Virus record (IMG/VR): IMGVR_UViG_3300047551_001440
Location: 1-34,291 of that record
Origin: a virus
Taxonomy: Duplodnaviria; Caudoviricetes
DNA: 34,291 nucleotides
Reading direction: 5' to 3' (one strand)
The notes beneath the pieces were generated by a model. The model did no database searches. It was not told the origin of the DNA and saw only the letters and a program-made list of their open reading frames with translations. The position numbers and the translations under genes are program-made. Below are positions 3,460-31,891 of this stretch, piece by piece (within the stretch, counting starts at the first letter, position 1; every line of letters begins with the position of its first letter).

Positions 3460-4929
3460 ATGCAACCCTTTGAAATCGCCATCGAACTGGGCAAGTTGTC
3501 CGGTCCCGCCATCTACGCTGCAACGTCGGCCCTGCTGCCTGGGTCGCAGTCGAACGACAAGGCCGCCAACTGCAAGGTGCTGATGCATGCCATCAAAAAC
3601 GGCACCATCACACTGTCCCAGGTGCAAAACCATACCTATGCCGTAACGCACGGCACCGTGATGCGTCCGGTCGCCACCTCCACGGTCATCGCGCCCGATC
3701 CTGCGATGGTGCAGTCGGTCCAGGCTAGTGCATCGGCGGCATCCCGCGCCGAGTCGGTGGCCCTGGAGGCTAAGGCCCTGGCCGATGCCCTCGCGCCTCA
3801 GGTCAAGTCGGTGCGTGACGGTCTGACCGGACTGTCCGAATCCATCATCAAGACCCAGGCCGAGGTTGCTGCGGCCCTGAGTGGCAAGGGGCAGAAGGCG
3901 GCAGTCGAGCGCACCATCGCCAAGGCAGTTGCCGAAGCGTTCGCGCCGATCCGCGCCGCCGCTGAGGCCAACGGCACCCAGGCCGAGGTTGCTGCTGCTG
4001 CTGCTGCCCCGGTGCGGCAGGACACTGCCCTGGCCGTGTTTGGGGTGGACATCCGCGACGTCAAGGGCAACCCCGTGATGGTCGATGTTTGGGATAACCC
4101 CGAGGCGCCCCAGGTCGATCCGTATTTTGTCTGGGGTGCCACCAACCTCGCGCCCCTGCTTGCGGCTCAGTCCATCCGCGCCAATGTGTGGATGGGTGGC
4201 GAGAAGGGCACGGGCAAGACTGAGACGGCGCGGCAGTTCGCCGCTCGGACGGGTCGTGCGTTTACACGGGTGAACTTCCACAAGTTCACGACCTCCGAGG
4301 AGTTCATCGGTGCGACGGGTCTGGTCAACGGCAATACCGTGCATGAGCCTGGGCCTGTGCTGCGGTCGCATTGCGGCACCCCTGGCGCAATCACCCTGCT
4401 TGATGAGATCACCCTCTGCGATCCCGGTGAACTTGCCACCCTTCATGCCCTGCTTGAGCCGAATGGGCGTGTAAACCTGGGCGGCAAGGTCTGGACCGCA
4501 GCCCCCGGTGCCCTGTGCTTTGTGGCCGACAACTCGGGCGGCAACGGTGATGCGTCGGGTCGCCATGCCGGGGTGCGCGTGATGAACAGCGCCCTGCTCG
4601 ACCGTTTCGCGCTCAAGGTGCCCTTCACCTTCCTCCCTTTGGATCAGGAGGTGGCGGCAGTGTGCAAGCACACTGGATGCAGTGATGCCCTGGCACGTTG
4701 CGTGATGCGCGTCATCACGACTGCCCGGAACAAGGTGCAGAAGGGTGACATCGTGGACGCACCGTCGATCCGCCAAGTCATGGCATGGATTCGGTCGATG
4801 CCGATCCTGGGGGTGCGTCAAGCCTGGGACATCTCGGTGGCATCGGCGCAGCCTGCCGAATCTGTCCTGGCCCTGGAGGGCATCTATGCCGCCGAGGTCA
4901 ACGAGGTTGAACTGCTGAACCTGCTGTAA
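3460..4929 (+). CDS. MoxR/CobS-like AAA+ ATPase
   Basis: Walker A GEKGTGKT, Walker B LLDE, NSALLDRF; N-terminal coiled coil; adjacent VWA gene. Confidence 0.85.
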   Translation: MQPFEIAIELGKLSGPAIYAATSALLPGSQSNDKAANCKVLMHAIKNGTITLSQVQNHTYAVTHGTVMRPVATSTVIAPDPAMVQSVQASASAASRAESVALEAKALADALAPQVKSVRDGLTGLSESIIKTQAEVAAALSGKGQKAAVERTIAKAVAEAFAPIRAAAEANGTQAEVAAAAAAPVRQDTALAVFGVDIRDVKGNPVMVDVWDNPEAPQVDPYFVWGATNLAPLLAAQSIRANVWMGGEKGTGKTETARQFAARTGRAFTRVNFHKFTTSEEFIGATGLVNGNTVHEPGPVLRSHCGTPGAITLLDEITLCDPGELATLHALLEPNGRVNLGGKVWTAAPGALCFVADNSGGNGDASGRHAGVRVMNSALLDRFALKVPFTFLPLDQEVAAVCKHTGCSDALARCVMRVITTARNKVQKGDIVDAPSIRQVMAWIRSMPILGVRQAWDISVASAQPAESVLALEGIYAAEVNEVELLNLL

Positions 4930-4943
4930 TAGCAATGCGGGTG

Positions 4944-4972
4944 TTGACACACTAGCACCCGTATTCGATAAT
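4944..4972 (+). promoter_or_regulatory. Sigma70-like promoter within an imperfect inverted repeat
   Basis: TTGACA-N17-GATAAT; arms AATGCGGGTGTT / AGCACCCGTATT. Confidence 0.7.
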
Positions 4973-4995
4973 CTGTTCGTACTTTGGAGCCGCAA

Positions 4996-6540
4996 ATGCA
5001 AAACGATTCGTTCATCGTAGGTCTGTCCCGCCGCCCGTGGGTGTACGGTTGGGAACTGCGCCGCGCCATCACCGCACTGGTCGAGTCCATCGGTGCGAAG
5101 GTGCCGCGCAACAAGGTCAGCATCACGTTGACCTGGGCACCGATCCAGACTGCCTGTGTCAACGGCTCGGGCGATATGAAGTTGGCATCGGTGCGCGACG
5201 ATGCCCAGGTGCCCCGCGCCCTGTTTTTGAGGTACGTCGGGTTTGTTGTGCATGAGGTGCTGCACCTCGTTTACACCGACTTCACGGTGCGCGGCAACGG
5301 TCAGTACCTCGACCAACTCCACAACGCGGTGGAAGATGTTTGGATTGAACGCCGGGGCATTGCCGACCAGTTCACTGGCAACATCCAGACGATCCTGGCC
5401 GACCTGATGGACCAGATGGTTGCTGAAGCGATGGATGCGGTGCAGGACTGGACCGATCCCGCCCAGTACCCGTTCGTTCTGGCAGTCACGGGTCGGCGCT
5501 ACGGTGCCAAGGTCCCGGTGGCCGAGGGCCTGGGTCCCATCTTCGATGAGGCATCGCGCCGCATCGATGATGCCAAGTCATCCCGCGACACTCTGCGGAT
5601 CGCTCAGTGGGTCTATGACCAACTGAAGGGTCTGCCAAAGGATCAGGAGAAGAAGGGCAAGGGCAAGCCGCAGGGTGACAACGGTGCCGATAGCGGCGAT
5701 GGTGACAAGGCAGCCGATGGTCAGGCCACCCCTGGCAAGGCCACCGCGCCCAAGTCATCCACGGTCGCGGCCAATCCTGAGCCGAGCCTCCAGATCGAAG
5801 ACGGCATGGGCGGCGCATCGATCCCGGATCACGGCATCTCTGCGGACGGCACCTACCTTTCGTCCAACCCGCGGCGCGAAGTCGAGGCCGCGGTCCCGGC
5901 GAAGTTGCGCTACGAGGTTCGTCGCCTGTTCGATAACAGCAGCACAACCCTGTTCAGCCCAGGTCGCCGCTCCGGTTCGCTCAACGTGCGGTCCCTGCAT
6001 AAAGTCTCAATCGATGACCGTCTGTTCCAGAAGCGCGAGGACCTCGACGGCATCGACAGTGCGGTCAGCATCGTGCTCGACGTTTCCGGCTCTATGTGTG
6101 ATCGGCTGAATCAGTCCTGCAATGTGGCCTATGCCCTGGCCGACTCGCTGATCAGTGCCGAGGCCCAGGTCGAGATCGTACTGTTTGGGTCGAGCGCAGC
6201 ACGGGCTATGCCCTTCTGCTCCAACAAGGCCAAGGCAAAGGATGTTCTGAGCCGCGTTCACCTGGGCGGCGGCACCAATGACCGGATGGCAGTTCGAATG
6301 GCCCTGGATCATCTGCTCCTGCGCCAGGAGCGCCGCCGAGTGATGTTCGTCATCACTGACGGTCAGGGTTGTGTGCATGACGTCAACCTCATGTGCCAAT
6401 CCGCAATGGCACTGGGCATCACGGTGATTGGGGTGGGTATCGGGTGCGATGTCAGCACTTCGTATCCGCAGTCGGTCACCGTTCACAACGTGAGCCACCT
6501 GGGCCAAGTGGTGTTCCGCGAAATCAAATTGGCCGCTTAA
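4996..6540 (+). CDS. CobT-like protein: N-terminal HExxH domain plus C-terminal VWA domain
   Basis: HEVLH...NAVED, low-complexity linker, MIDAS DVSGS, GGT, ITDG. Confidence 0.85.
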   Translation: MQNDSFIVGLSRRPWVYGWELRRAITALVESIGAKVPRNKVSITLTWAPIQTACVNGSGDMKLASVRDDAQVPRALFLRYVGFVVHEVLHLVYTDFTVRGNGQYLDQLHNAVEDVWIERRGIADQFTGNIQTILADLMDQMVAEAMDAVQDWTDPAQYPFVLAVTGRRYGAKVPVAEGLGPIFDEASRRIDDAKSSRDTLRIAQWVYDQLKGLPKDQEKKGKGKPQGDNGADSGDGDKAADGQATPGKATAPKSSTVAANPEPSLQIEDGMGGASIPDHGISADGTYLSSNPRREVEAAVPAKLRYEVRRLFDNSSTTLFSPGRRSGSLNVRSLHKVSIDDRLFQKREDLDGIDSAVSIVLDVSGSMCDRLNQSCNVAYALADSLISAEAQVEIVLFGSSAARAMPFCSNKAKAKDVLSRVHLGGGTNDRMAVRMALDHLLLRQERRRVMFVITDGQGCVHDVNLMCQSAMALGITVIGVGIGCDVSTSYPQSVTVHNVSHLGQVVFREIKLAA

Positions 6541-17612: not shown

Positions 17613-17812
17613 CTGAAAAGACAAACAAGATTACGTTTGCACCAGGGTGCTTTGATAACTTCGACGGCACTCAGGACGAACTTGACGAACTCATCGCCCA
17701 GATCAAGAAGATGGTGGAGGACGGAACCCTGGAAGAGAACGCCACCCCGCTCACTCCCGAAGAGGAGGAGTTGATGTTTCAAAAAATGAACCAGAGGAAA
17801 GAGCGGCAATGA
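17609..17812 (+). CDS. Acidic hypothetical protein
   Basis: ATG 17609 overlaps the upstream stop; FAPGCFDNFDGTQDELDEL. Confidence 0.7.
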   Translation: MTEKTNKITFAPGCFDNFDGTQDELDELIAQIKKMVEDGTLEENATPLTPEEEELMFQKMNQRKERQ

Positions 17813-18492
17813 ACCCCATCACCATCGCCTGCGTTTACCGCACACAGAAGGTGTATGGGGCCTACAAAAACCCCACATACTCACCCGAGTATGTGGAGAA
17901 ACTCAAGCGCGGGTTTGAGCGACACCTTCCTCTGCCTCATCAGTTTGTCTGCCTGACTGATGCGCCCTTCTCCGACTACTGCATCCCGCTCCTGCATGAC
18001 TGGCCTGGATGGTGGTCCAAGATTGAACTGTTCCGTCCTGGCCTACTGACCGGACGGGTCTTGTCCGTGGACTTGGACACCGTGCTGCTTGGTGACCTGT
18101 CTGCCCTGTTTAACCATGACGAGAGGCTCGTGATGATGCGGGATCGGTCCTTCGGGGTTCCCAACTCGTGCCTGATGTACTGGGACACCGACAACTCCCA
18201 CATTTACACGACCTTCTTGGAAGCCCCCGAAAAGCACATGCACACCTTCAGGTTGGGTGGGCACGGCAGTCAGTTCGGGGATCAGGGGTTCATTGAGATC
18301 GTGCAGCGTGGCAGGCCCATCGCCATGTGGCAGGACATCCTGCCTCCCGGCTCCCTGGTCCACTACAACAAGGACATCCACAAAACCTCGGATTGGAAAG
18401 ACCGCAGCAAGGACGCGATCCTCTGTTGGTGGTCTGCCACGCCGAAGCCCCGCGACACGCAACATCCTCTTGTTCTGGAGAACTGGGTATGA
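17809..18492 (+). CDS. GT-A fold glycosyltransferase-like protein
   Basis: FVCLTD, WWSKIELF, DLD (DxD), NSCLM, GDQ. Confidence 0.75.
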   Translation: MNPITIACVYRTQKVYGAYKNPTYSPEYVEKLKRGFERHLPLPHQFVCLTDAPFSDYCIPLLHDWPGWWSKIELFRPGLLTGRVLSVDLDTVLLGDLSALFNHDERLVMMRDRSFGVPNSCLMYWDTDNSHIYTTFLEAPEKHMHTFRLGGHGSQFGDQGFIEIVQRGRPIAMWQDILPPGSLVHYNKDIHKTSDWKDRSKDAILCWWSATPKPRDTQHPLVLENWV

Positions 18493-19714: not shown

Positions 19715-22700
19715 TCAAGAGGTCTGCTTCTTCAGCATCTGGATGTTCGATGTCATCTGGTTCTCAATCTGGGTGATTGCCCGGATGAGGTCCCGCTTGG
19801 CATCGGCATCCATCGGCAGACTGCGGACCATGTTCTTGGTGTCCCGGTACTGCTTCATGGTCTTCTCAAGGTCGAGGATGTAGTCCTTGAACGCGAACAT
19901 CTTGATGTTCTCCGACATGTACTGACCGTACTGTTCGAAGTTCATGCTGCGCTCAAGGAGGTTGGCCGTCCGGGTTGCCTCATCCACCGAGTTCTTGAGA
20001 TCGTAGTACGCCGTCACCTGACCACGAGCGTCAGGGTCCAGGGCGAAGCGTTTAACCACGGGCATTTGCTCGAAACGCTTACTGGCCTTCGGGTTGTCGG
20101 TGTGCATGTCCCACACGGCATCGATCACATCAGACATGTACTGCCCGATGGTTCCCGTGTATCCCTTGATGATCTGGTCGATCTTCATGGGGGACATGTT
20201 TAACGCTCCACCCAGGCCCTCTGCCAAGCGTGAGGTGCCGGGGCCAACCTGATACCCAGGAGCCACCCCCTCCAACCCTTGTCCCACGATGGGACGGAAG
20301 GTGAAGAAGGAGAAGTTGGTGGTGGCCTCAACCAGGGGCAGGATGGTCTGAGGAATCGGGTTTACAGCAAGGGTGCTCGCCAGATTCCGGGCCATCGACT
20401 TTGTGAAGTCCTTGGCCGTGTCATCCCCAAGGGTCAGCGCAGCGATCCGCTCAGGGATCACCTTGAACAGCACACCCACTTCGAACGGGATGGGGATACG
20501 AATGCCCAGTGAGGGGAAGAGCCAGTTGTTGTCCCTGGTTTCCTGCTCCTGACGCTTGTACTCCTCATCGTCGTGGGTGAGCATCCAGTACATCGTGGAC
20601 AGGGCTGCGATGGTCATGCCCCGCACCCAGAATGCCCTTTGGATTTCCTTTGCGTTCTTGGTGGCGTTCTTCCCGAATCCTGCCCGGTACAGAACGTCTA
20701 AACCCTGCATCCGTGCGTTGAGGAACGGAATGGCCGCGGTCGCTACACGGACGATGGGGTTGTTGCCCTTGCGGTTGAAGTTCATCACCTCAAGCGCACG
20801 GAACAGTGCCTCGGCTTCGTTGCCCGTTTCCTTCAGGGTGGACTTGTAAACCTCAATCCGGGTAGCAGCGTCAGAAGCCTGCGTTCCCTTCTCCAGGCCC
20901 TCCCACAGGTATGTAAACGGGCGCATGGCCTTCTCGCCCGCCGTTGGCTTCCCACCTGCGCGGCGCAGTTCCTTGCCGAACTCCTTGGCCGCTTCCTTCG
21001 TGCCCTGTGAGTAGTCGTACCCTCCGATGATGCCTGCCATCTGAAGGATGTTGAACTCGGGAGACTGACCCGCCAGGGTCTTGGTGAAGTTGGCGAGCGT
21101 GGCCGTAATCGGTGTCATGTTTACACCGCTCGTAGTCCACGCAGCCAGAGAGTCCCGCATCATGTTGGCGAGCATGAAGCCGGGGTCCTTGGTCACAAGG
21201 TTCCGCAGGACGTTGGCCGGGGCGGCAAGCAACCCGATAAACGGCAGATCAGGCATACCCAGAGACTTGATGGCCTCAATGAAGAGCATGTCCGAGGTGT
21301 CGTAATAGACCTTCTCGCCGTCCTCCAGAACGTAGAAACTGTTGATGGGGTCAGGGGTAGCGCCCTTAGGCACCTTGTCCACCATCCGAACATCCATGCC
21401 CACATCAGCGGCGCGACGGGCAGCAATGTTCTTCACCCCTGCCTGAACAGCAGCCTGGGTGTTGCGAACCATGTTCTCAAGGAAGTCCCCAAGCGGGTCC
21501 TCACCGCCCTTGAGTTTGCGGGGTTGTTTAACCGCAGCAATGGACTGGAAGATGCGCGGCCCGACAGCATCATCATCACCCTGAATCTGGCGATAGAAGG
21601 GCAGGTAGTCACCATGCTTGGTGAACTCGTATGCCTGCTTGCGGCTCAGGACCCCGGTATCCACCATGAACTCAACCAGAGCGTCGTTGTAGGCGTTCCA
21701 TTCCTTCTGAATCTTTTCGAAATCAACCCCGTCCTTCAGGAACTGCTGACGCAGTTGTTCAGCCTTCTGGATGTCGGCCTTTTCGAACAGACGCTCCTTG
21801 ACCACCTGCCCTTGGGCGTTGGTCATCCACTTCTCACCCCGTTTAACGCCTGCCCAGAATTGGTAGTACTGATAGGCCATAGGATCGCCGTACTTCGCCA
21901 GGGGGGCGAAGATGGCAAGCGGTCCCTTGATGGTGTTGTTCTTGTTGGAGACGGTCACATAGCCGCGCTCCTTGACTGACCCGCCAACCTTCTTGGCGAA
22001 GGCTTCAGCAGCACGGCGGTCAGTGATCTTCCCGCCCAACTGAATGAACTGATCACCCTGAGGACCGGGCACACGCTTCTCAACCGCGTAGTAGCGGTTG
22101 TAAACGGGCACACCACCGATCTTGTCGTACACACCCAGAGCGCCTGCCACGATGCCTGCACCGAGGTCAGACAGCAGAGCAGCCGATTCTGCGGTCTGGT
22201 CCGCGTACATTTCTGCCCCGCCACTGCGGGCGAGTTTCAACTTGTCGGCATCGCCAAGACGGTTGTATCTGTTTAACGCGGCAGCACGATAGCGCGAGCG
22301 AGACTCGGGCGCGATGGCGTCAGTGATGCGCTGCTCAAAACCCTTCTCTTGCCGAACCGTCGTGGTCTGGAGGGTCCGGGCAGTGATGGCAGGATCAATC
22401 TGGGACTTCAGGCTGAACCGGATGTCAGGGCTTGTTGGTTCAAACGTGCCCACATTCCCAATGGCAGACTTGACCTGAGTCGGCTTGTAAACGGCTAGGT
22501 TTTTGCGACCTTCCTCTTTTACATAGAAAGAATCAAAGCCTGCCAGTTGTATTGCTTCTTGGACTTCTGGTAATTCAATAATTTCCCAATTACCACTACG
22601 AATATCGCTCCAAAAATAATCATCATCAAGATTTAATTCTTCTTTAATGCGACGAATGTGACGAGTATTTTGATAATCAAATGGGTTTTCTGCCTTTACA

Positions 22701-25700
22701 AATAAAGGCATGATGTGAGGTCCTGTCAATGGCTCAAACCCATATGTTTGACTTTCTTTGGCAAATTTTTCCGCAAATACCGGATCATCTGTTAAGAAAA
22801 TGGGCGCACCACGCTTGGTTTTCCGGGTGAAATCAGTTGTGTCTTTGGCAAGGCCGTGATACATCAACTTTGGCTCACCATTGGCATCCACAACCTTGCT
22901 GTCACCGAACCACCGCCTGAACGCTTCGGTCTGAGGAGCACGCAGGCTGAACTTGACTTCACCTTCGCCGCCGAATTTCTGTTTAACCTCATCGCGGTAC
23001 TCCCAACTCAGGGGAGTCATCTCCACATTGCGGATGCCTGCGATGGCTTTTCCTTGGGAGCCAAATGACTGCGGCCTGAGGTAAACGCTTTTGGGCTTGG
23101 CACTCTTTTCGTGACTGCCACCAGACAACCCAAGGTAAACAGGAACTTCCTCAATGCCTGCGTCCCGAAGAGCCATCATGCGGTGGCGACCCTCGTGTCC
23201 CGTAATTTCGTATTCATCAGGGCTGATGCGGCGGATGTCGAGCGTTATCGGCTGACGCTCATTTGCAAGTTCTTCGCGCCGCAGCGGTTCACGCTCTGTC
23301 TCAAGCCGCTCCCGGTAATCTCGGGTTGCAGTGGCATCAAGGAAGTCACTTGGACGGATAAACGCAGCGTAGCCCTTGGTATCACCCTCTCGACCATTCT
23401 GCGTGTACATGTTGGACGAAATCAGAGACTCAATGCGCTTGTCAGTCCAACGGCCCGAGCGCAGGCTGAACCGGATGTCACCCGCCTTCTGAGCCTCCAC
23501 AGCCTGCTCTTCGGTCATGCCAACCCGAGCAGCCTCTTCTGCCGTGGGGGGACGCTGTCCGAAGGTGCCGACGTTCTTGTCGATGGACTTGATCTTGGTG
23601 ATGTCGTACACACCAAGGTTCTTGGTCCTGCCCTCGCTGACATAGAACGAGTCGAAGTTCTTCCGGATGGCCCTCTGGACCTCGGGCGTCTCAATGTCGC
23701 TCCAGTCGCCCAGGCTGACCGTCTCCTTGTACCTGTCGTTTACCGCCTTCTGGAACTCCTTCGGGGTGCGCTCCAGGGTCTGCTTGAGCATGAAGTTCTC
23801 AGGGGCGAAGATGTCCACACCCTTCGGGGCAGGCTCGTACCCGTACTTCCTCTTGACCTCCGGGTCAGAGAGCATGTTCTTCATCACCGTGTTTACATGC
23901 TCTTTGTTGTCGTAGTCGAACGGCCTCTCTGAGAGGACGTACAACTCCATCACCTGTTCCTTGGCCTCAGGAATCTTGGAGAAGGCGATGTCGTACCAGA
24001 TGTCTTCCAGTTCACCCTTGAACTTGTAAACGCCCGTCTCCTTGGCGTCCATCAACGTGTCGTTGATGCTGTCCATGAACTGCATCGTGGTCTTGCTCTG
24101 CTTGCCGTACTCCGCGTAAACCCTCTGCCGCAGTTCTTGGACGATGGGCCGGATTTCAGATACGGGCAGGAACTCACCAATGTGCCGCACCATCCAGTTG
24201 CGGGATGCTGATGTAAACGGTTGGGCAAACCGGGGGTTGGGACTGACGAAGGTAGCCCCCGCCTGCTTGGGACGGAACTTGAAGAAGGTCAGCCCAGTGC
24301 CGTGGTACATGGGAATCAGGTTCCCATCCTTGTCCACGATGGCCGACTTCTTCGCGGCCTCCTGCAACTCGGGCGTGGTTAAACGAGTCTCTGCAAGGCT
24401 GAACTTGGGAGGCGTTACTTCTGTGGGTTCTGCTTGGGCAGGCTCTCCACGAACTTCTGTAGCGCCTGCGACCTCTCCTCTGGCGACATCCCCACGACCA
24501 TCGCGCTCAGGGAAGACCACAGAGGGTCCCTCTCGTCTATCAGTCTTTTGGGACTGGGCGATGATGGCTTCTTCGTATCCGATGTCATCTGCTTTCCTTC
24601 CGCTGAGTTTTTCGTATAAACGCTTCTCGTAATACCAAAGAGCGGCTTGGATGTCTGCCAACGTCAAGTCAATGCCCTCGCTCCTCAGGATGCCCTGAGC
24701 ACGGCGAGCCGCCCGGTACATAAAGTCACGGTCATTGGCTGTAAACGGCGCCTCTTCCAGACCTTCAAACTCGTTCTTGTAGATGGTGTTTGCCATCTTT
24801 TCGAGGTTGTGGTCATACAGGAGTTGGTCATAGGCGGGGCCTGCCACTCGCTGTGCCTTGGTAAACCAAGCGGGCTTGGCTCCCTTTTTAGATGGCTCCT
24901 TTGAGCCAACCAGATGCTCCAGTTCGGTGGTGTACCCAAACTCTTCGTACTTGTTACGCAAGGGGATCGTTGCCGCCACCAGATCATCACGATCCATTGA
25001 CGGGTCACCGATCATGTCCCGGAACTTTTCGATTGAGGCATCTGTGGCGCGGGGGATGAGCAGGCCACGCATCCGATTGATGGAGCGAGTCCACCACAAA
25101 TCCATCGTCAGGTAGCCTTCAGAGCCGGAGAGGTTGGCGTAGAAAGCCCCCAGTTTTGGCCCGAAGTAAACAGCCGCCGCAGGAACAACGGTGTTGTACA
25201 GGTAACTTGTGTCTGGCTCTTCACCCATTGCCCGCAGTTGGGCATTCATGTCCTTGACGGTGATTTCTTGCTTGAGCACCTTCTCAAAGTCGGTGCCATG
25301 CTTTGCCAGAAGGTCTTGGATGACCTGAAGGTTGTTCTCTAAAGCGGTTGCTCGACGGTTGCCCATCGCAACCAATGGCTTTCCACTACGCAACTTGGAG
25401 TACAGCGTGATGGCGTTGTCGATGTTCTTGTTGACCTTTTCGCCGTTGGAGGTCACGGCAACCAGTGCCGTAAATACCGCCCGTGCGTGTCGGTTTGTGG
25501 CAAGTTCCGGGAACCGATTGCCAAGCCGTTTAACGGCCCGTGGATAGTTGTTTGAGTACCACCCAAGCCCGGTTCCAGTCTCACGCTTGCCTGCCGTCAG
25601 TTGATATGCCACCTCATCCGCGATGGCCTTGGCGATGGCCGTCTCGTTGAGCAGGTTCAACTTCTTGCGGTCCATCTTCCCCTGTTCGCGGAGGGTTTGC

Positions 25701-28700
25701 TCGTTTAACGCAATACCAATGTCACGAACCTTGTTGGCGATGCCGCGCTTGGTTGCAATGTTCAGTCCAAGTTCTGCCCGCGCAAACTCATCGTTGGCCT
25801 CCATGATGGCCCGTGTAGACAGGGGCACTTCACCACGCAGGCTGAACTTGCCTTCGGGGGCTTTTTGTTCAATTGGGATGTTGTGCCGACCAATCAGGAC
25901 GGCAAAGCCCTGCTGCCCTATCGGATCACGGTGCAGGTATCCATCAAACCCTGCCCGCATGATCGAACGCTCAAGGTTGGAGGCTCGGTCATTGGCGTCT
26001 TCACCACGGTTGTTCTTGATGATGCCAAGCGGGTCAGCAATGACATCGTATAAGTTGTTTAGACGAACAATGTGCTGAACGCCACCAACCCCTGCCTCTT
26101 GGCGCACACCCTTGCCCGTGTTTACATAAAAGTAAATGCGGGGCTTGATGTCTGAGTTCTTGGCGTCAGAAAGACGGTCAGCCTCGGCACCCCGAAGGCC
26201 GGTGCCGTAGTAACCCGAGATGAGGGTGTCTCTGGGCTTTTGGCTGAAATGAACGCCAATGGCGCTTACTGCGCCTTCTCGGGGGCTTCCGTATTCTGCT
26301 TGGGGTTCACCAGTCTGAGGAGCGATTCCTCCGCTGACTGAGCGAGTGATTGCTCTGGAGTCAATCCATCGATCCCTGAGTTTGAGCGCTTCTTCTGATA
26401 GGTACTGAAGCCGATTGCGCCCTTCCCGCCGAGCATCTGGCCCTGGGGCACCGTCACGGTATTTACTTTCGCCATATCGAGTCCCCTCAAGGTAGTCTTC
26501 ACGCTTGTCGGGCCAAACAAGTTCGCTATGGAAACGAACAGGCAACGACACATCGATGCTTCCATCATAGTCAAACGACTCAATAGCGTCAACGATGGCA
26601 GACCGATATTGGTCATCCGTCAGGGTTTCAATGCTGTCGTTGTAGGCCGAGAAGTTCCCGTACAACAGCGCACCATCGCGCAACGTGTCGCCTTCAGCCT
26701 GGGGAACCCGGTCTGCGATATGCCTGCGAAGTTGTGTGATCTTCTGATCGTCCATGCCCTTGGGCAAGAAGACCTTGACGAAGCCCGCTTGGTTGTCTGA
26801 TGTGGTGTTGAACTCATCAAAGGCAACCATCGCCTTCTGATCCAACACATACCCCAACACACTTGCCAGTTCAGACAGGTCTTCTGCCGACGCACTATCA
26901 GGGGCAGAGATCAAAACATTTGGATTCCTCTGGCCTTCGTATGTCCCAGATGAAAACTGATACTTGTAGCCTTTAAACCCAAGGTAATCGAGTACGCGGC
27001 CCACGACTTGGTTGGCAACAGACTTGGTCGCACTCATGCGCTCTTCGTCCGTCATCTGCTTCCAAGACTCGGATACAGGCTGATCTGGGTTGGGGGCAAC
27101 CTCTGCAATAACGCCGCGAGGAGATGGGACTCCCTGTTGGGCAAGGCTCGCTTTGGGCTGAGTTGGCGTCTCTTGTTTAACAGTCTTCTGCGGTGCAGAA
27201 ACCTGCCCCTTTTCAACCCGCTCAAACAGACGCTCGGGCGTGACCTCTGCCATGCCAACCGATTCCTTGATCGACTGGAAGAGATTACGCATCTTGGCGA
27301 TCAGCGCCCGGATCATGCCCGGAGGTGCCTTGGCGACGGCGAAGTCCCCAAACGCATCCGCGATGGCCTCTTCAACCATCGACTCCTGAATGGCGGCGTC
27401 ATCCAACCCTTGCTGTTTGAACAGACGGGTGTATGCGTCGTACCTGCTTTCCTTGCCCGGTTGCAGGTAGTTGCCGTCGATGTCCCGGTTACGCAGGTAG
27501 GTGTCGATCCAAGTCGTGTTGGCCTGTTTAACCAGAGACTGCCACTGCGCCGGAGTGAAGAACTCCAACTCCTTGAGCGCGTGGATGGACTCATGTTTAA
27601 GTGCCCGCACAGGGTCAGCCGTGTTCACGGCCAACTGGATCAGGCCCTTGGAGTAAACACCGTTGGCGTTCTTCAGGTCATCGATGACCTTCACGCCCAC
27701 GTTGGTCAGACCGTAGCGTTTAACCTGCTCTTGGAGGAGGCCCTGGAACTTCTCCATCTGCGATGAGATGACCGATTCCTGCTCCGCGATCAGTTCCTGG
27801 GTGGTCGGAGGCTTGAACTCAGCAGGAGTTACTGGAGCGGGTGGGACTCCTTCTCCTGCAACAGGCGCTCCAACATCCGCGACAGGAGGAACCACTCCAG
27901 TTCGTTCAACTCCCTCAACTCCTGGGGCGGGTCCAGTGTCAGTGGGTCCAACAGGAACTGGAACGCCTTCTCCACCTGCTGTTTCGACAACTTGTCCAAC
28001 ATCAGGCACCTCCCTCGTGCTCAGGTACTCGTTGATGACGTTTAACGCATCAGTGGCTGCTTGACGCTGCCCTCGACTGACCTCGGGACTGGTGCTTGCG
28101 GCACTCAGGGTTGCCTTGATCTCTTCAGCCTGTGCGGGGTCGTTGATGTCCTTGTTCAGGAGGATGTTGTACAAGTCACCCTTGCGGAAGCCAAGGTCCT
28201 TCAGGGCATCCTTATCAAGACGGTTGCGGCCCTCTTCATCTGCCTGGGCACGGAGTTCTTCAAGGAACGCCTTGCGGGCGATGATGTCGGACTGGGTGTT
28301 GCGGATGTCCTCATCCAGAGACTTCATCTCGGGGGTCAGGCTCTTCTTGCCGAGCACCACATCTGTGGTGCCAGACACCACACCACCACCCAGACCGCCC
28401 TTCAAGCCTGCGTTGAGGAACCGCTCAAGGTTCTTCTCGGAGAAGAACTCTTGGTTCTCATCCACGAACTTCTCAGCAGCAGCGGAGGACATCTCCTGAG
28501 CCGCTTCCGTTGCACCCTCGGTGAGGAATCCCTTGGATGCCCCGACACCGAAGCGTTTAATCCAGGCACCAACGGCCTGCTCTTCAGGGATGCCTGACTT
28601 CCTGAGTTTGGTCAGGATAGACAGCGGAAGCGCGGCATCAAGTAGGCTGTTGAACCCACCAAAGAGGAGGGCTGACCCGATGCTTTCCTGCTCCGTCTCG

Positions 28701-29329
28701 TCCTTGATGTTCTTGTAAACCTCAGGGACGTTCTGGAGGGATGATCCGGCGACGATACCGACCGCGTCGTACTTGATTGCGGTGCGTCGTGCGGCTTCGA
28801 TTCCGGCCTGTCGGATTTCATCCTGAACTTCTTTCTTGGCAAGGGCCTCTGCTCCTTGCTCTGCCACCTTCTTCTTGGCCGCAGCCTCTGCTGCTTCCTT
28901 GGCGGCAATGACCGCACCACGACTTGCCACGCCCGCGATACCACCTGTAAACAGGGATGGCAGGATGGACGGGATCAGTTCACCGACCGACTCCGTGATG
29001 TAAGTGATCGCATCGCCAACGCCCTTGACATCCTTGTAGGACGGTACGGCAGCGGCGTACTTCTCCTGAATCTTCTGTTCGGTTTCAGCGGCCTCTCGGA
29101 ACTGACGCTCCGCATACTCGTTTGCACCAAACAGCCGTCCTGCCATCGCGGGCAGGATGTCACCCATGAGGATTCCGGTCTGAAGGAATCCACGTTGCAC
29201 GGCAGGGATGAACCCGCCCTGCGGCTTCGGTGCCGCAGCGGCAGGCTCAGTCTCCAACTGAAATCCCGGTGGAAGTTGAACGCCTTTGGAAGGCTCCTCT
29301 TCAAGGACGAATCCGGGCGGCAGGGCCAT
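19715..29329 (-). CDS. Giant polyvalent virion/ejection protein (3204 aa): metallopeptidase, ART-like, HhH glycosylase-like, two ART-PolyVal-like, ParB-like and LPD38-like domains
   Basis: HESIH (aa 579); GVHFS...RIYFY; GPKLGAFYANL/TMDLW/QAALW; two MYHG...PFDY...FDSFYV repeats; GHEGRHR; C-terminal RIPIPFE...SPMKIDQIIKGYTG. Confidence 0.85.
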   Translation of the reverse strand: MALPPGFVLEEEPSKGVQLPPGFQLETEPAAAAPKPQGGFIPAVQRGFLQTGILMGDILPAMAGRLFGANEYAERQFREAAETEQKIQEKYAAAVPSYKDVKGVGDAITYITESVGELIPSILPSLFTGGIAGVASRGAVIAAKEAAEAAAKKKVAEQGAEALAKKEVQDEIRQAGIEAARRTAIKYDAVGIVAGSSLQNVPEVYKNIKDETEQESIGSALLFGGFNSLLDAALPLSILTKLRKSGIPEEQAVGAWIKRFGVGASKGFLTEGATEAAQEMSSAAAEKFVDENQEFFSEKNLERFLNAGLKGGLGGGVVSGTTDVVLGKKSLTPEMKSLDEDIRNTQSDIIARKAFLEELRAQADEEGRNRLDKDALKDLGFRKGDLYNILLNKDINDPAQAEEIKATLSAASTSPEVSRGQRQAATDALNVINEYLSTREVPDVGQVVETAGGEGVPVPVGPTDTGPAPGVEGVERTGVVPPVADVGAPVAGEGVPPAPVTPAEFKPPTTQELIAEQESVISSQMEKFQGLLQEQVKRYGLTNVGVKVIDDLKNANGVYSKGLIQLAVNTADPVRALKHESIHALKELEFFTPAQWQSLVKQANTTWIDTYLRNRDIDGNYLQPGKESRYDAYTRLFKQQGLDDAAIQESMVEEAIADAFGDFAVAKAPPGMIRALIAKMRNLFQSIKESVGMAEVTPERLFERVEKGQVSAPQKTVKQETPTQPKASLAQQGVPSPRGVIAEVAPNPDQPVSESWKQMTDEERMSATKSVANQVVGRVLDYLGFKGYKYQFSSGTYEGQRNPNVLISAPDSASAEDLSELASVLGYVLDQKAMVAFDEFNTTSDNQAGFVKVFLPKGMDDQKITQLRRHIADRVPQAEGDTLRDGALLYGNFSAYNDSIETLTDDQYRSAIVDAIESFDYDGSIDVSLPVRFHSELVWPDKREDYLEGTRYGESKYRDGAPGPDARREGRNRLQYLSEEALKLRDRWIDSRAITRSVSGGIAPQTGEPQAEYGSPREGAVSAIGVHFSQKPRDTLISGYYGTGLRGAEADRLSDAKNSDIKPRIYFYVNTGKGVRQEAGVGGVQHIVRLNNLYDVIADPLGIIKNNRGEDANDRASNLERSIMRAGFDGYLHRDPIGQQGFAVLIGRHNIPIEQKAPEGKFSLRGEVPLSTRAIMEANDEFARAELGLNIATKRGIANKVRDIGIALNEQTLREQGKMDRKKLNLLNETAIAKAIADEVAYQLTAGKRETGTGLGWYSNNYPRAVKRLGNRFPELATNRHARAVFTALVAVTSNGEKVNKNIDNAITLYSKLRSGKPLVAMGNRRATALENNLQVIQDLLAKHGTDFEKVLKQEITVKDMNAQLRAMGEEPDTSYLYNTVVPAAAVYFGPKLGAFYANLSGSEGYLTMDLWWTRSINRMRGLLIPRATDASIEKFRDMIGDPSMDRDDLVAATIPLRNKYEEFGYTTELEHLVGSKEPSKKGAKPAWFTKAQRVAGPAYDQLLYDHNLEKMANTIYKNEFEGLEEAPFTANDRDFMYRAARRAQGILRSEGIDLTLADIQAALWYYEKRLYEKLSGRKADDIGYEEAIIAQSQKTDRREGPSVVFPERDGRGDVARGEVAGATEVRGEPAQAEPTEVTPPKFSLAETRLTTPELQEAAKKSAIVDKDGNLIPMYHGTGLTFFKFRPKQAGATFVSPNPRFAQPFTSASRNWMVRHIGEFLPVSEIRPIVQELRQRVYAEYGKQSKTTMQFMDSINDTLMDAKETGVYKFKGELEDIWYDIAFSKIPEAKEQVMELYVLSERPFDYDNKEHVNTVMKNMLSDPEVKRKYGYEPAPKGVDIFAPENFMLKQTLERTPKEFQKAVNDRYKETVSLGDWSDIETPEVQRAIRKNFDSFYVSEGRTKNLGVYDITKIKSIDKNVGTFGQRPPTAEEAARVGMTEEQAVEAQKAGDIRFSLRSGRWTDKRIESLISSNMYTQNGREGDTKGYAAFIRPSDFLDATATRDYRERLETEREPLRREELANERQPITLDIRRISPDEYEITGHEGRHRMMALRDAGIEEVPVYLGLSGGSHEKSAKPKSVYLRPQSFGSQGKAIAGIRNVEMTPLSWEYRDEVKQKFGGEGEVKFSLRAPQTEAFRRWFGDSKVVDANGEPKLMYHGLAKDTTDFTRKTKRGAPIFLTDDPVFAEKFAKESQTYGFEPLTGPHIMPLFVKAENPFDYQNTRHIRRIKEELNLDDDYFWSDIRSGNWEIIELPEVQEAIQLAGFDSFYVKEEGRKNLAVYKPTQVKSAIGNVGTFEPTSPDIRFSLKSQIDPAITARTLQTTTVRQEKGFEQRITDAIAPESRSRYRAAALNRYNRLGDADKLKLARSGGAEMYADQTAESAALLSDLGAGIVAGALGVYDKIGGVPVYNRYYAVEKRVPGPQGDQFIQLGGKITDRRAAEAFAKKVGGSVKERGYVTVSNKNNTIKGPLAIFAPLAKYGDPMAYQYYQFWAGVKRGEKWMTNAQGQVVKERLFEKADIQKAEQLRQQFLKDGVDFEKIQKEWNAYNDALVEFMVDTGVLSRKQAYEFTKHGDYLPFYRQIQGDDDAVGPRIFQSIAAVKQPRKLKGGEDPLGDFLENMVRNTQAAVQAGVKNIAARRAADVGMDVRMVDKVPKGATPDPINSFYVLEDGEKVYYDTSDMLFIEAIKSLGMPDLPFIGLLAAPANVLRNLVTKDPGFMLANMMRDSLAAWTTSGVNMTPITATLANFTKTLAGQSPEFNILQMAGIIGGYDYSQGTKEAAKEFGKELRRAGGKPTAGEKAMRPFTYLWEGLEKGTQASDAATRIEVYKSTLKETGNEAEALFRALEVMNFNRKGNNPIVRVATAAIPFLNARMQGLDVLYRAGFGKNATKNAKEIQRAFWVRGMTIAALSTMYWMLTHDDEEYKRQEQETRDNNWLFPSLGIRIPIPFEVGVLFKVIPERIAALTLGDDTAKDFTKSMARNLASTLAVNPIPQTILPLVEATTNFSFFTFRPIVGQGLEGVAPGYQVGPGTSRLAEGLGGALNMSPMKIDQIIKGYTGTIGQYMSDVIDAVWDMHTDNPKASKRFEQMPVVKRFALDPDARGQVTAYYDLKNSVDEATRTANLLERSMNFEQYGQYMSENIKMFAFKDYILDLEKTMKQYRDTKNMVRSLPMDADAKRDLIRAITQIENQMTSNIQMLKKQTS

Positions 29330-31024: not shown

Positions 31025-31891
31025 TCAGGCAGGCTTCGTGGTGGTGGAGGAAGACTTCTTGACAGGCTCTGTGGGGAACATGCGCTGATAAATATCCATC
31101 AAACCCCCGGTCGTGTTCATCCAGTTGCTCAGTGAACTGGGCTGTTGGTACGAGGCTGCGATGGACTGAATCGGCATCCCCTGGAGCATGGACTGTTGGA
31201 ACTGCAACTGTTTATACGGGTAATCCCGCTGTCGCTCAAATTCGGCCAGATCGGCTGCAATGCCTTCGGATTCGATGCCACGCTGTGCTGCCCCGGCGCT
31301 GCTCAACATGCCTGCCAGACCCATTCCTTGGGCCTGCTCTCGGTTGAACTGATCCATCGCCTTGTCGAAGGCGGTGGCGTACCCCTGGCCGATGGTGCTG
31401 CCCATCTGCGTCATCAGGTTGCGCTGCAACTCGGCATCCATGATGGCTTGCCGACTGCCCCCGAATGCCCCGGCCTGGGTCATCCGAGATGCGTTCTGCA
31501 TCTGCTGAATCTGAGACTGACGGCGCAGTTCTTCCAGTTGCGGCTGAAGCACGTTCTGGAGATACGGGTTCATGTACTGACCCGCGATCCCGGTCGGGGC
31601 AGTAACACCTTGCGTCGGGCCAGAGGTCGAGGCGGTGGGGAGCGTGGGCGCACCAGTCGATGTAAACGACTGACCCAGTTGTCCGGGGAAGCCGATCTTC
31701 CCCAGGCCCTCAAAGTATTGGGTCTGAAGGCTCGACGGGCCTGCGGTCAGCGGTCCACCGTATACCTGATAGGGCTGCTCGGTCAGGGCCTCTGCCTTGC
31801 CGAGCATGGAGGTCACATACGGGCCTGCCCATTCGGATAGGGTTTCCTGACGGCCAGTCTGCCCTGGTGCGACTGCGGGTGCTGTTGCCAT
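31025..31891 (-). CDS. DNA transfer/pilot-like ejection protein
   Basis: YMNPYLQNV, GAFGGSRQAI, Gln/Gly-rich. Confidence 0.7.
   Translation of the reverse strand: MATAPAVAPGQTGRQETLSEWAGPYVTSMLGKAEALTEQPYQVYGGPLTAGPSSLQTQYFEGLGKIGFPGQLGQSFTSTGAPTLPTASTSGPTQGVTAPTGIAGQYMNPYLQNVLQPQLEELRRQSQIQQMQNASRMTQAGAFGGSRQAIMDAELQRNLMTQMGSTIGQGYATAFDKAMDQFNREQAQGMGLAGMLSSAGAAQRGIESEGIAADLAEFERQRDYPYKQLQFQQSMLQGMPIQSIAASYQQPSSLSNWMNTTGGLMDIYQRMFPTEPVKKSSSTTTKPA

Follow-up and report, generated by a model that had tools for sequence, protein, structure and literature searches.

A recurrent serine-centred motif bounds exchangeable cassettes in a giant phage polyvalent protein and is a candidate cut site for its own predicted metallopeptidase

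This analysis concerns a 34-kb virus record of the Caudoviricetes (IMGVR_UViG_3300047551_001440; completeness estimate 57%), here called the window and analysed over its full 34,291 nt, and in particular the giant minus-strand gene that encodes a protein of 3,204 amino acids (aa). Judged from its domains, namely an HExxH...E domain, two ART-PolyVal domains and an LPD38 domain scoring over the cut-off (E 7e-33), this is a phage-type polyvalent protein. LPD38 is a phage-specific marker domain, listed as phage-type only in the available text of Iyer, Burroughs, Anand, de Souza and Aravind (2017; PMC5512222). The gene has a virion/ejection-module setting, with an upstream match to DNA ejection proteins and a match of its own N-terminus to a virion protein. 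Between the HExxH domain and a conserved C-terminal block (C-block) the protein is an array of cassettes joined at a five-residue motif, [KR]-x-S-[LI]-[RK], and it is well supported that this motif marks the borders of exchangeable cassettes.

A preliminary description of the window had located six motifs along the protein and an HESIH word at residue 579, and all are found at those residues. The protein contains five [KR]FSL words where its composition would give 0.06, and all five are encoded by TTC AGC CT(G/T), as had been noted. The 19-bp word claimed at 22409 and 23462 and the 17-bp word at 22939 and 25834 are likewise present, the 19-bp identity existing because two paralogous ART-PolyVal cassettes share their tail (D-I-R-F-S-L). 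The 11-mer MRGTTCAGCCT occurs five times in the record, every copy at one of these motif sites, and its reversed control does not occur. Since all six motifs are spanned without a single mismatch by contigs of what may be the source run (which is not independent support for the motifs), mis-assembly at the sites is not indicated and an assembly artefact as their source was ruled out. Two statements of the description hold in part. The motifs do lie between domains in that relatives show the borders, but Pfam names only the two ART-PolyVal cassettes and LPD38; and the motif DNA is uniform within the window genome but not as a family property, there being 249 different 15-mers among 305 sites in the family.

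A scan with the C-block gave 97 confirmed matches, from which 80 loci were kept. With the window added and six duplicates removed these represent 75 proteins, of which 12 are cut short, do not include the HExxH domain and were set aside, leaving 63 for use. The usual layout is the HExxH domain, then a variable array, then the C-block. All matches to a strict form of the motif (124/124) fall in the stretch that separates the HExxH domain from the C-block and that holds 49% of the residues of the 63 proteins. Position two is variable (Y 96, L 88, F 55, A 31 and others), and therefore the consensus is [KR]-x-S-[LI]-[RK]; the FSL core first described is not conserved, as F does not belong to the consensus. 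A broad pattern, widened after the data from the 63 proteins had been seen, finds 305 sites (2-9 per protein) compared with 23-47 in 20 shuffles, and their density of 3.2 per 1000 aa between the HExxH domain and the C-block is about 15-fold that outside (0.23 in the N zone and 0.19 in the other outside zone). When the fixed pattern was applied to the best 150 of 2,549 representatives, which were taken with an HExxH profile and may overlap the 63-protein set at the cluster level, 427 sites were obtained at 2.83 per 1000 aa versus 0.34 and 0.21. In neighbouring open reading frames (ORFs) the density is 0.25 per 1000 aa. The sites are located in polar, Pro-rich linkers, and the joints missed by the pattern mostly hold variants (RYNLR, KLSFP, KKALK, RYQIR).

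Cutting at the motif resolves the 63 proteins into 50 segment families (25 of them singletons) arranged in 58 architectures, and most of these natural effector units are unnamed candidate counter-defence factors. Even among pairs with a C-block identity of at least 90%, the architecture is the same in just 4 of 26 (62 proteins, one near-duplicate omitted). When the motif was masked, 48%, 56% and 71% of alignment ends lay no more than 15 aa from a site (at identities of at least 30, 50 and 70%, respectively) compared with 10% expected; this masked test replaced the enrichment of raw high-scoring segment pair ends, which the shared motif biases. In the 57 segments scanned, the payload domains include ART-PolyVal, DUF7178, GP88, RelA/SpoT, GNAT, ParB_N, Topoisom_I and methyltransferase, the majority being unnamed. 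For the cassettes of the window (Table 1), PF23802 matches other members of family F3 at E 8e-6 and 9e-5, and related cassettes down to 1e-30, with no match for the window's own F3 copy. Family F8 gave no noteworthy Pfam or PDB match, and its weak Atlas leads, to a SAM-lyase-like and then an ART-like cluster (0.87 and 0.77), are leads only, as are those of F6 to SbnI (E 0.44) and PFIN (E 0.05-0.06). Profile searches of PDB sequences with the HExxH domain, F8, F3 and F6 returned nothing under E 0.04. The rare cassettes of relatives include a topoisomerase IB-like catalytic core (E 7.6e-19; L065:5003-5764), a RelA/SpoT domain (E 5.5e-7; L077:7973-8860) and a methyltransferase (E 5.6e-7; L070:6386-8068).

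Table 1. The giant gene of the window, its parts in order from the N-terminus, and its upstream neighbour
Feature	Position	Strand	Evidence or remark
Giant polyvalent (predicted virion ejection) protein, 3,204 aa	19715..29329	-	ORF; LPD38 + ART-PolyVal; N-terminus similar to PHROG virion structural protein, E 1.4e-8
N-terminal region, aa 1-519, junction motif absent	27773..29329	-	phrog_6958 aa 28-146; phrog_2206 aa 71-349, E 3e-4
HExxH...E domain, aa ~520-710, predicted zinc metallopeptidase	27200..27772	-	H579, E580, H583, E653/E654
Junction motif 1, KASLA, K726 (aa 726-730)	27140..27154	-	first site after HExxH domain
Cassette family F8, ~430 aa, unnamed	25850..27139	-	8 members
Junction motif 2, KFSLR, K1161 (aa 1161-1165)	25835..25849	-	motif match; 17-bp repeat copy at 25834
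Cassette family F3, ~480 aa, DUF7178-related	24407..25834	-	PF23802 matches of other family members
Junction motif 3, KFSLA, K1642 (aa 1642-1646)	24392..24406	-	motif match
Cassette family F0, ART-PolyVal with insert, ~310 aa	23474..24391	-	PF18760 E 1.6e-9
Junction motif 4, RFSLR, R1953 (aa 1953-1957)	23459..23473	-	within 19-bp repeat copy 23462-23480
Cassette family F6, ~170 aa, invariant HEGRxR	22955..23458	-	family comparison; weak ParB/sulfiredoxin-like lead
Junction motif 5, KFSLR, K2126 (aa 2126-2130)	22940..22954	-	17-bp repeat copy 22939-22955
Cassette family F0, ART-PolyVal, ~175 aa	22421..22939	-	PF18760 E 3.5e-21
Junction motif 6, RFSLK, R2304 (aa 2304-2308)	22406..22420	-	19-bp repeat copy 22409-22427
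Conserved C-terminal block, ~900 aa, LPD38 at 20054-20569	19715..22405	-	PF18857 E 7e-33; 52-67% identity in 80 viral loci
Upstream gene similar to DNA ejection protein family	31025..31891	-	phrog_4287 E 3.3e-6

Exchange at the joints can be followed in the DNA. DNA blocks that share at least 85% identity over at least 200 nt have 145 ends, 25 of which border on unrelated protein, and these 25 superseded a count of raw block ends (31/151). In 13 of the 25, which are not independent events (three pairs share one junction), the breakpoint lies within -6 to +21 nt of the motif start in both partners, where 3.1% would be expected, and nine further breakpoints no more than 60 nt from a motif bring the count to 22/25. 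In several pairs the identity starts at the Ser codon or stops after the Leu codon, the crossover being limited to a few bases around AG(C/T)CT, and it follows that K/R-x tends to go with the cassette upstream, and the final basic residue with the one downstream. Related proteins acquire, lose and exchange cassettes without breaking the frame, the crossovers lying within the codons of the motif, as the preliminary description had anticipated. Contigs of other runs point to similar events. One (a single contig, depth 2.2, side 65) joins 22940 to 23460 and skips exactly the 519-nt F6 cassette, with likeness set at 88, at which the joints may stem from other organisms; in another, 22398 is linked to 22944 across 11 intervening letters and the second ART cassette is missing (side only 24), and another tracks F3 to 25853, at junction motif 2, and then continues in unlike sequence. 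Runs X3 and X4, whose near-identical tables were counted as one, had no cover over F8, F6, most of F3 and most of the second ART cassette, and such gaps in cover were not taken as evidence. Separately, in the near-empty forms P0051, P0053 and P0059, compared with P0034, two motifs stand about 10 aa apart, and the deletion that removed the ART cassette lies just inside the motifs and not in them.

The preliminary description had further taken the motif to be conserved at the DNA level as a recombination site, a claim that the pattern of silent change does not support. Across 331 junction pairs with a common downstream cassette, silent mismatch in the motif matches that in the flanks for Ser (113/331 vs 187/505, 0.34 vs 0.37), Leu (143/272 vs 168/318, 0.53 both), Arg (71/189 vs 222/575, 0.38 vs 0.39) and Lys (12/47 vs 228/801, 0.26 vs 0.28), and the flanking third positions carry no information. 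The Ser codon is AGY at 258/305 sites (85%), compared with a background of 33%, and TCN at 47/305. The choice of codon box goes with the cassette downstream (F4 19/19 TCN, F0 76/77 AGY), as descent predicts, and the TCN-type sites of F4 are joined to several different upstream segments. Ser codon identity within a gene is 0.45, where codon usage expects 0.20, and between genomes it is 0.44, an equality that descent again predicts. Since silent mismatch equals that of the flanks and both Ser codon boxes are used, the motif is best read as a code of the peptide rather than of the DNA. Counting against an absence of DNA selection, the five sites of the window are more uniform than the family motif frequencies predict (2.5e-4); recent exchange among these sites or codon bias may contribute, and AGC-only Ser usage is found in 5 of the 53 proteins with four or more sites. 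No tyrosine (PF00589) or serine (PF00239) recombinase was found among the phage genes of 16 near-complete relatives (controls detected 14 and 12 of 14; a host recombinase is outside this scope). Erf, AAA_24 (Sak4-like) and the S78 prohead protease were each found in 0/17 genomes (0/16 near-complete relatives), in a search that left RecT and Rad52 types outside and covered S78 as the sole prohead-protease family. Each genome holds 15-35 copies of a degenerate DNA version of the motif, spread over both strands; an in-frame excess of this DNA pattern (178, 29, 10) was circular and not used. From these sequences, one gene appears to evolve as an array of cassettes with no recombinase dedicated to it.

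The C-block also matched 52 phage records, of which 11 were examined together with one phage found via the HExxH domain, the motifs in these distant lineages being picked by visual inspection or with a pattern that had been fitted to them. Synechococcus phage MinM2 carries ESAR four times, the last copy directly before the C-block, and Vibrio phage 1.232.O carries LAS[LI] three times. Vibrio phage D274 is without the 130-aa cassette between the first two LAS sites, and DNA identity stops in the first. In the clade of Aeromonas phiARM81mr the joints carry [KR][FM]S[QK], chiefly [KR][FM]SQ, and among 54 proteins of this clade a pair of motifs commonly stands 14-16 aa apart, the filled forms having 123-236 aa between the two; 87 of 156 breakpoints (which are non-independent) lie in the motif, compared with 6.5% expected. 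Distant phages appear to use their own Ser-centred motif (ESAR, LASL, KFSQ) at the same joints, in lineage-specific versions that are uniform within one protein and differ between lineages with different HExxH clades. The cultured phages with analogous motifs are PTXU04/Pondi, MinM2, Vibrio 1.232.O and D274. Scans of viral contigs with the HExxH domain and with the C-block of MinM2 gave no confirmed relative, and a scan with that of Pondi gave one.

In the HExxH domain, H579, E580, H583 and E653/E654 (in EEA) are invariant in 65/65 and in 51/51 aligned members, and an HExxH is present in 150/150 listed representatives. Both the HExxH and the downstream Glu are on predicted helices. This H/E ligand pattern matches the description of the metallopeptidases (MPTases) of polyvalent proteins in the available text of PMC5512222. 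The sequence before the HExxH has a strand-like alternating pattern, and two AlphaFold2 models (pLDDT 88 and 91) consist of helices throughout, including the part that forms the sheet in a zincin. Foldseek with the first model found nothing in PDB at E≤0.001, a missing match that is compatible with a zincin fold; the best VIA Z values of the two models, 5.4 and 4.8, are to unrelated chains, and BFVD returned other giant phage proteins only. The Atlas neighbours (0.96 and 0.91) are polyvalent-protein clusters (LPD23 at 18-20%, LPD1). A prediction of the complex between the domain, aligned in 65 rows, Zn and a motif linker of 34 aa, aligned in 38 rows, scored 0.02 against a mark of 0.32, which is evidence neither way. 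As an observation in its own right, in representative P0002 (4,460 aa) the HExxH domain occurs in four copies between payload regions, and no [KR]xSL motif is present; such repeated domains are a second way of punctuating the chain.

We propose that the motif is the cut site of the built-in HExxH peptidase and that its codons serve in addition as microhomology for shuffling, a reading to which we give a probability of about 0.6. The giant protein would be packaged in the virion and ejected with the DNA into the host, as the gene context and the virion proteomics of phi24B gp47 suggest. Its own HExxH domain would then cut at [KR]-x-S-[LI]-[RK], at a candidate scissile bond between x and S or between S and L, freeing separate effectors. 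Predicted release is of five cassettes of 20-54 kDa, the calculated pieces for a cut before Ser being 77.8, 48.1, 53.7, 35.7, 19.8, 20.5 and 100.0 kDa. Crossovers would come from ordinary microhomology recombination at the motif codons, filtered by selection, and would persist because frame and cut site are kept. What speaks for cleavage is the position bias of the motif, the peptide-level constraint on it, its linker setting, the invariance of HExxH and Glu, the lineage versions, and S78 being found in none of the 16 near-complete relatives. More broadly, and here we see the odds as even, DNA phages may widely deploy such a 'plug-in polyprotein', a giant protein that is injected and in which a built-in metallopeptidase recognises a five-residue code private to the lineage and thereby frees reshuffled anti-host enzymes, the cut-site codons being the crossover point.

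Several observations weigh against cleavage by the built-in peptidase. The motif is loose, with N, A, Q, K, T or G standing in place of Ser at certain joints, and the pattern is absent from eight long representatives with an intact HExxH (P0002, P0101, P0102, P0106, P0117, P0121, P0131 and P0138), although most pattern-less long representatives carry variant words at their cassette ends. In Vibrio phage FGH the HExxH domain sits directly on the C-block and no motif was seen. For three of the 25 DNA breakpoints, one or both partners have no motif nearby, and the breakpoint pairs, as noted above, are not independent. The domain is predicted to be a zinc metallopeptidase from its sequence motif, and curated peptidase families stay below the cut-off (Peptidase_M13 E 0.044 in 3/51, M91 E 0.031 in 1/51, M4 E 0.11). 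The control from peptidase loss is weak because HExxH-less proteins are few (two or three) and distant. Bacillus phage Page lacks the HExxH, yet an FK word is seen three times. On the side of cleavage, the two short HExxH-less homologues at L089 and L091 have no cassette array and no motif before the C-block by eye. A search for peptidase-less short forms listed 120 proteins, none with the N-terminal region or the HExxH domain, and these are therefore probably fragments and no control. Finally, the available texts describe the virion RNA polymerase (vRNAP) of N4 as packaged unprocessed and ArdC and TraC1 as transferred at full length (PMC5512222), and full-length recombinant N4 vRNAP with its HExxH domain has been imaged (PMC13434306); P1 DdrB, unlike these three, is processed (PMC5512222; PMC13434306).

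The positional and peptide-level evidence would fit equally well if the motif were never cut and instead served as a docking, unfolding or refolding signal for the ejection channel, a phage chaperone or an HExxH binder, with beads threaded or passed on in turn. Its tolerance of many substitutions suits such a signal, and N4 vRNAP is described as an uncut beads-on-a-string protein with an HExxH domain in the parts of PMC13434306 and PMC5512222 available. We nevertheless consider this unlikely, since the activities of the cassettes are unrelated (ART, GNAT, RelA/SpoT, topoisomerase I-like, methyltransferase, ParB), which favours release, since the 'empty' Aeromonas forms keep two motifs with nothing foldable between, and since the catalytic Glu is invariant. 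We give somewhat less credence again to another protease, of the host or an unrecognised one of the phage, cutting the motif while the HExxH domain acts on the cell wall or on host proteins. Peptidoglycan digestion has indeed been proposed for such domains (bioRxiv 10.64898/2026.04.10.717836; 10.1101/2020.03.07.982082, each as available), and a single prohead-protease family was covered by our search. A separate protease would however fit poorly with a motif version that is uniform within each protein but not across lineages of different HExxH clades, with the lack of enrichment in neighbouring ORFs, and with the S78 count. Cis-autoproteolysis at Ser/Thr/Cys was also considered. In N-O acyl-shift autoproteolysis an invariant nucleophile lies inside a conserved fold, and the candidate was rejected as the flanks here are unrelated linkers and Ser is replaceable by N, A, Q, K or G. 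A beta-clamp-binding motif was rejected because its consensus does not fit.

The remaining explanations place the function in the DNA. That the motif has no peptide function and is an ancestral linker, kept as the sole microhomology for cassette recombination, would account for the clustering of breakpoints, the excess of AGY, the within-gene Ser codon identity and the unusual uniformity of the five window sites. It appears improbable to us, since selection for DNA identity would reduce silent change and no reduction is seen, since Ser identity is equal between genomes, and since the F4 TCN sites are all joined to varied upstream segments. Least credible is that the motif codons are the core of an integron- or shufflon-like site for a dedicated recombinase. 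Of the traits of such systems a fixed short crossover core is present, as in the few bases around AG(C/T)CT and the exact 17-19 bp repeats of the window, but neither a dedicated recombinase nor DNA conservation beyond coding need was found. The diversity of 15-mers, the empty flanking third positions, the frequency of the degenerate DNA version on both strands and the recombinase count in the 16 near-complete relatives (the window record itself being 57% complete) make a site-specific cassette system very unlikely, although a host recombinase lies outside that count.

RNA-virus polyproteins and the prohead-protease processing of T4 and phiKZ are known cases in which one polypeptide is punctuated by a short repeated protease site. 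The window differs from them in being a DNA phage with a predicted metallopeptidase in cis and an interchangeable payload, and in that we infer the cleavage from sequence. For polyvalent proteins, release of domains by the peptidase was predicted by Iyer et al. with RNA-virus polyproteins as the analogy (PMC5512222, main text). Their phage-type proteins resemble the one described here in exceeding 2,000 aa, in carrying LPD38, ART-PolyVal and other effector-type domains and an HExxH...E, and in belonging to a virion module. The main text of that paper mentions no junction motif ('linker', 'boundar' and 'rfs' have 0 occurrences), which its supplementary alignments may show, whereas the present analysis names a candidate site and places the swaps at single-base resolution. 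The phi24B protein gp47 (bioRxiv 10.64898/2026.04.10.717836) is a 2,811-aa LPD38 protein detected in virions and a proposed packaged ejection protein; its metallopeptidase is proposed to act on peptidoglycan, and processing or a motif is not reported in the text available. N4 gp50 (PMC13434306) and crAss-like gp65/gp66 (10.1101/2020.03.07.982082) are also, as far as their available texts go, ejected proteins of giant size that combine an HExxH/zincin-like domain with subdomains joined flexibly, but gp50 is reported as unprocessed, and the window protein is without a polymerase and has a variable cassette array as its payload. Phage mosaicism (Martinsohn et al. 2008, PMC2327257) likewise exchanges modules via short shared sequence with no site-specific recombinase, RecET acting on 5-13 bp at a low rate according to the part of that paper available; here, however, what is exchanged lies in frame within a single gene, and selection on the peptide would maintain the shared sequence.

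In our literature search, for which subscription papers were mostly beyond reach, no publication was found to name a motif for junctions or cleavage in polyvalent proteins. The motif supplies a named candidate substrate for the zincin-release proposal of 2017, with exact sites and predicted fragment sizes. If the proposed cleavage is correct, captured domains would arrive in frame and already cleavable, and thousands of unnamed effectors could be separated from metagenomic proteins by rule.

Some further features of the window are recorded here. The N-terminus of the giant protein contains LPPGF twice, at aa 3 and 19 (29261-29323, minus strand); an LPPGF-like word occurs within the first 60 aa in just 4/58 relatives and is a possible packaging tag. 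On the plus strand, an AAA ATPase adjoins a VWA protein as a CobS/CobT-like pair (3460-6540), and a glycosyltransferase-family gene lies at 17809-18492 (phrog_1962, E 4.8e-33). Over the whole window (1-34291) a family of DNA words around TAAAC/GTTTA is strongly over-represented on both strands (GTTTAAC 23 vs 1.4 expected, TAAAC 102 vs 18, TGTAAAC 39 vs 1.8). Related words rank top in the loci of ten relatives (L002, L003, L004, L010, L011, L012, L030, L043, L050 and L062) and are rare in MinM2 and in the Aeromonas locus that was checked. These words are unconnected with the junction motifs and may be methylation, modification or protein-binding words.

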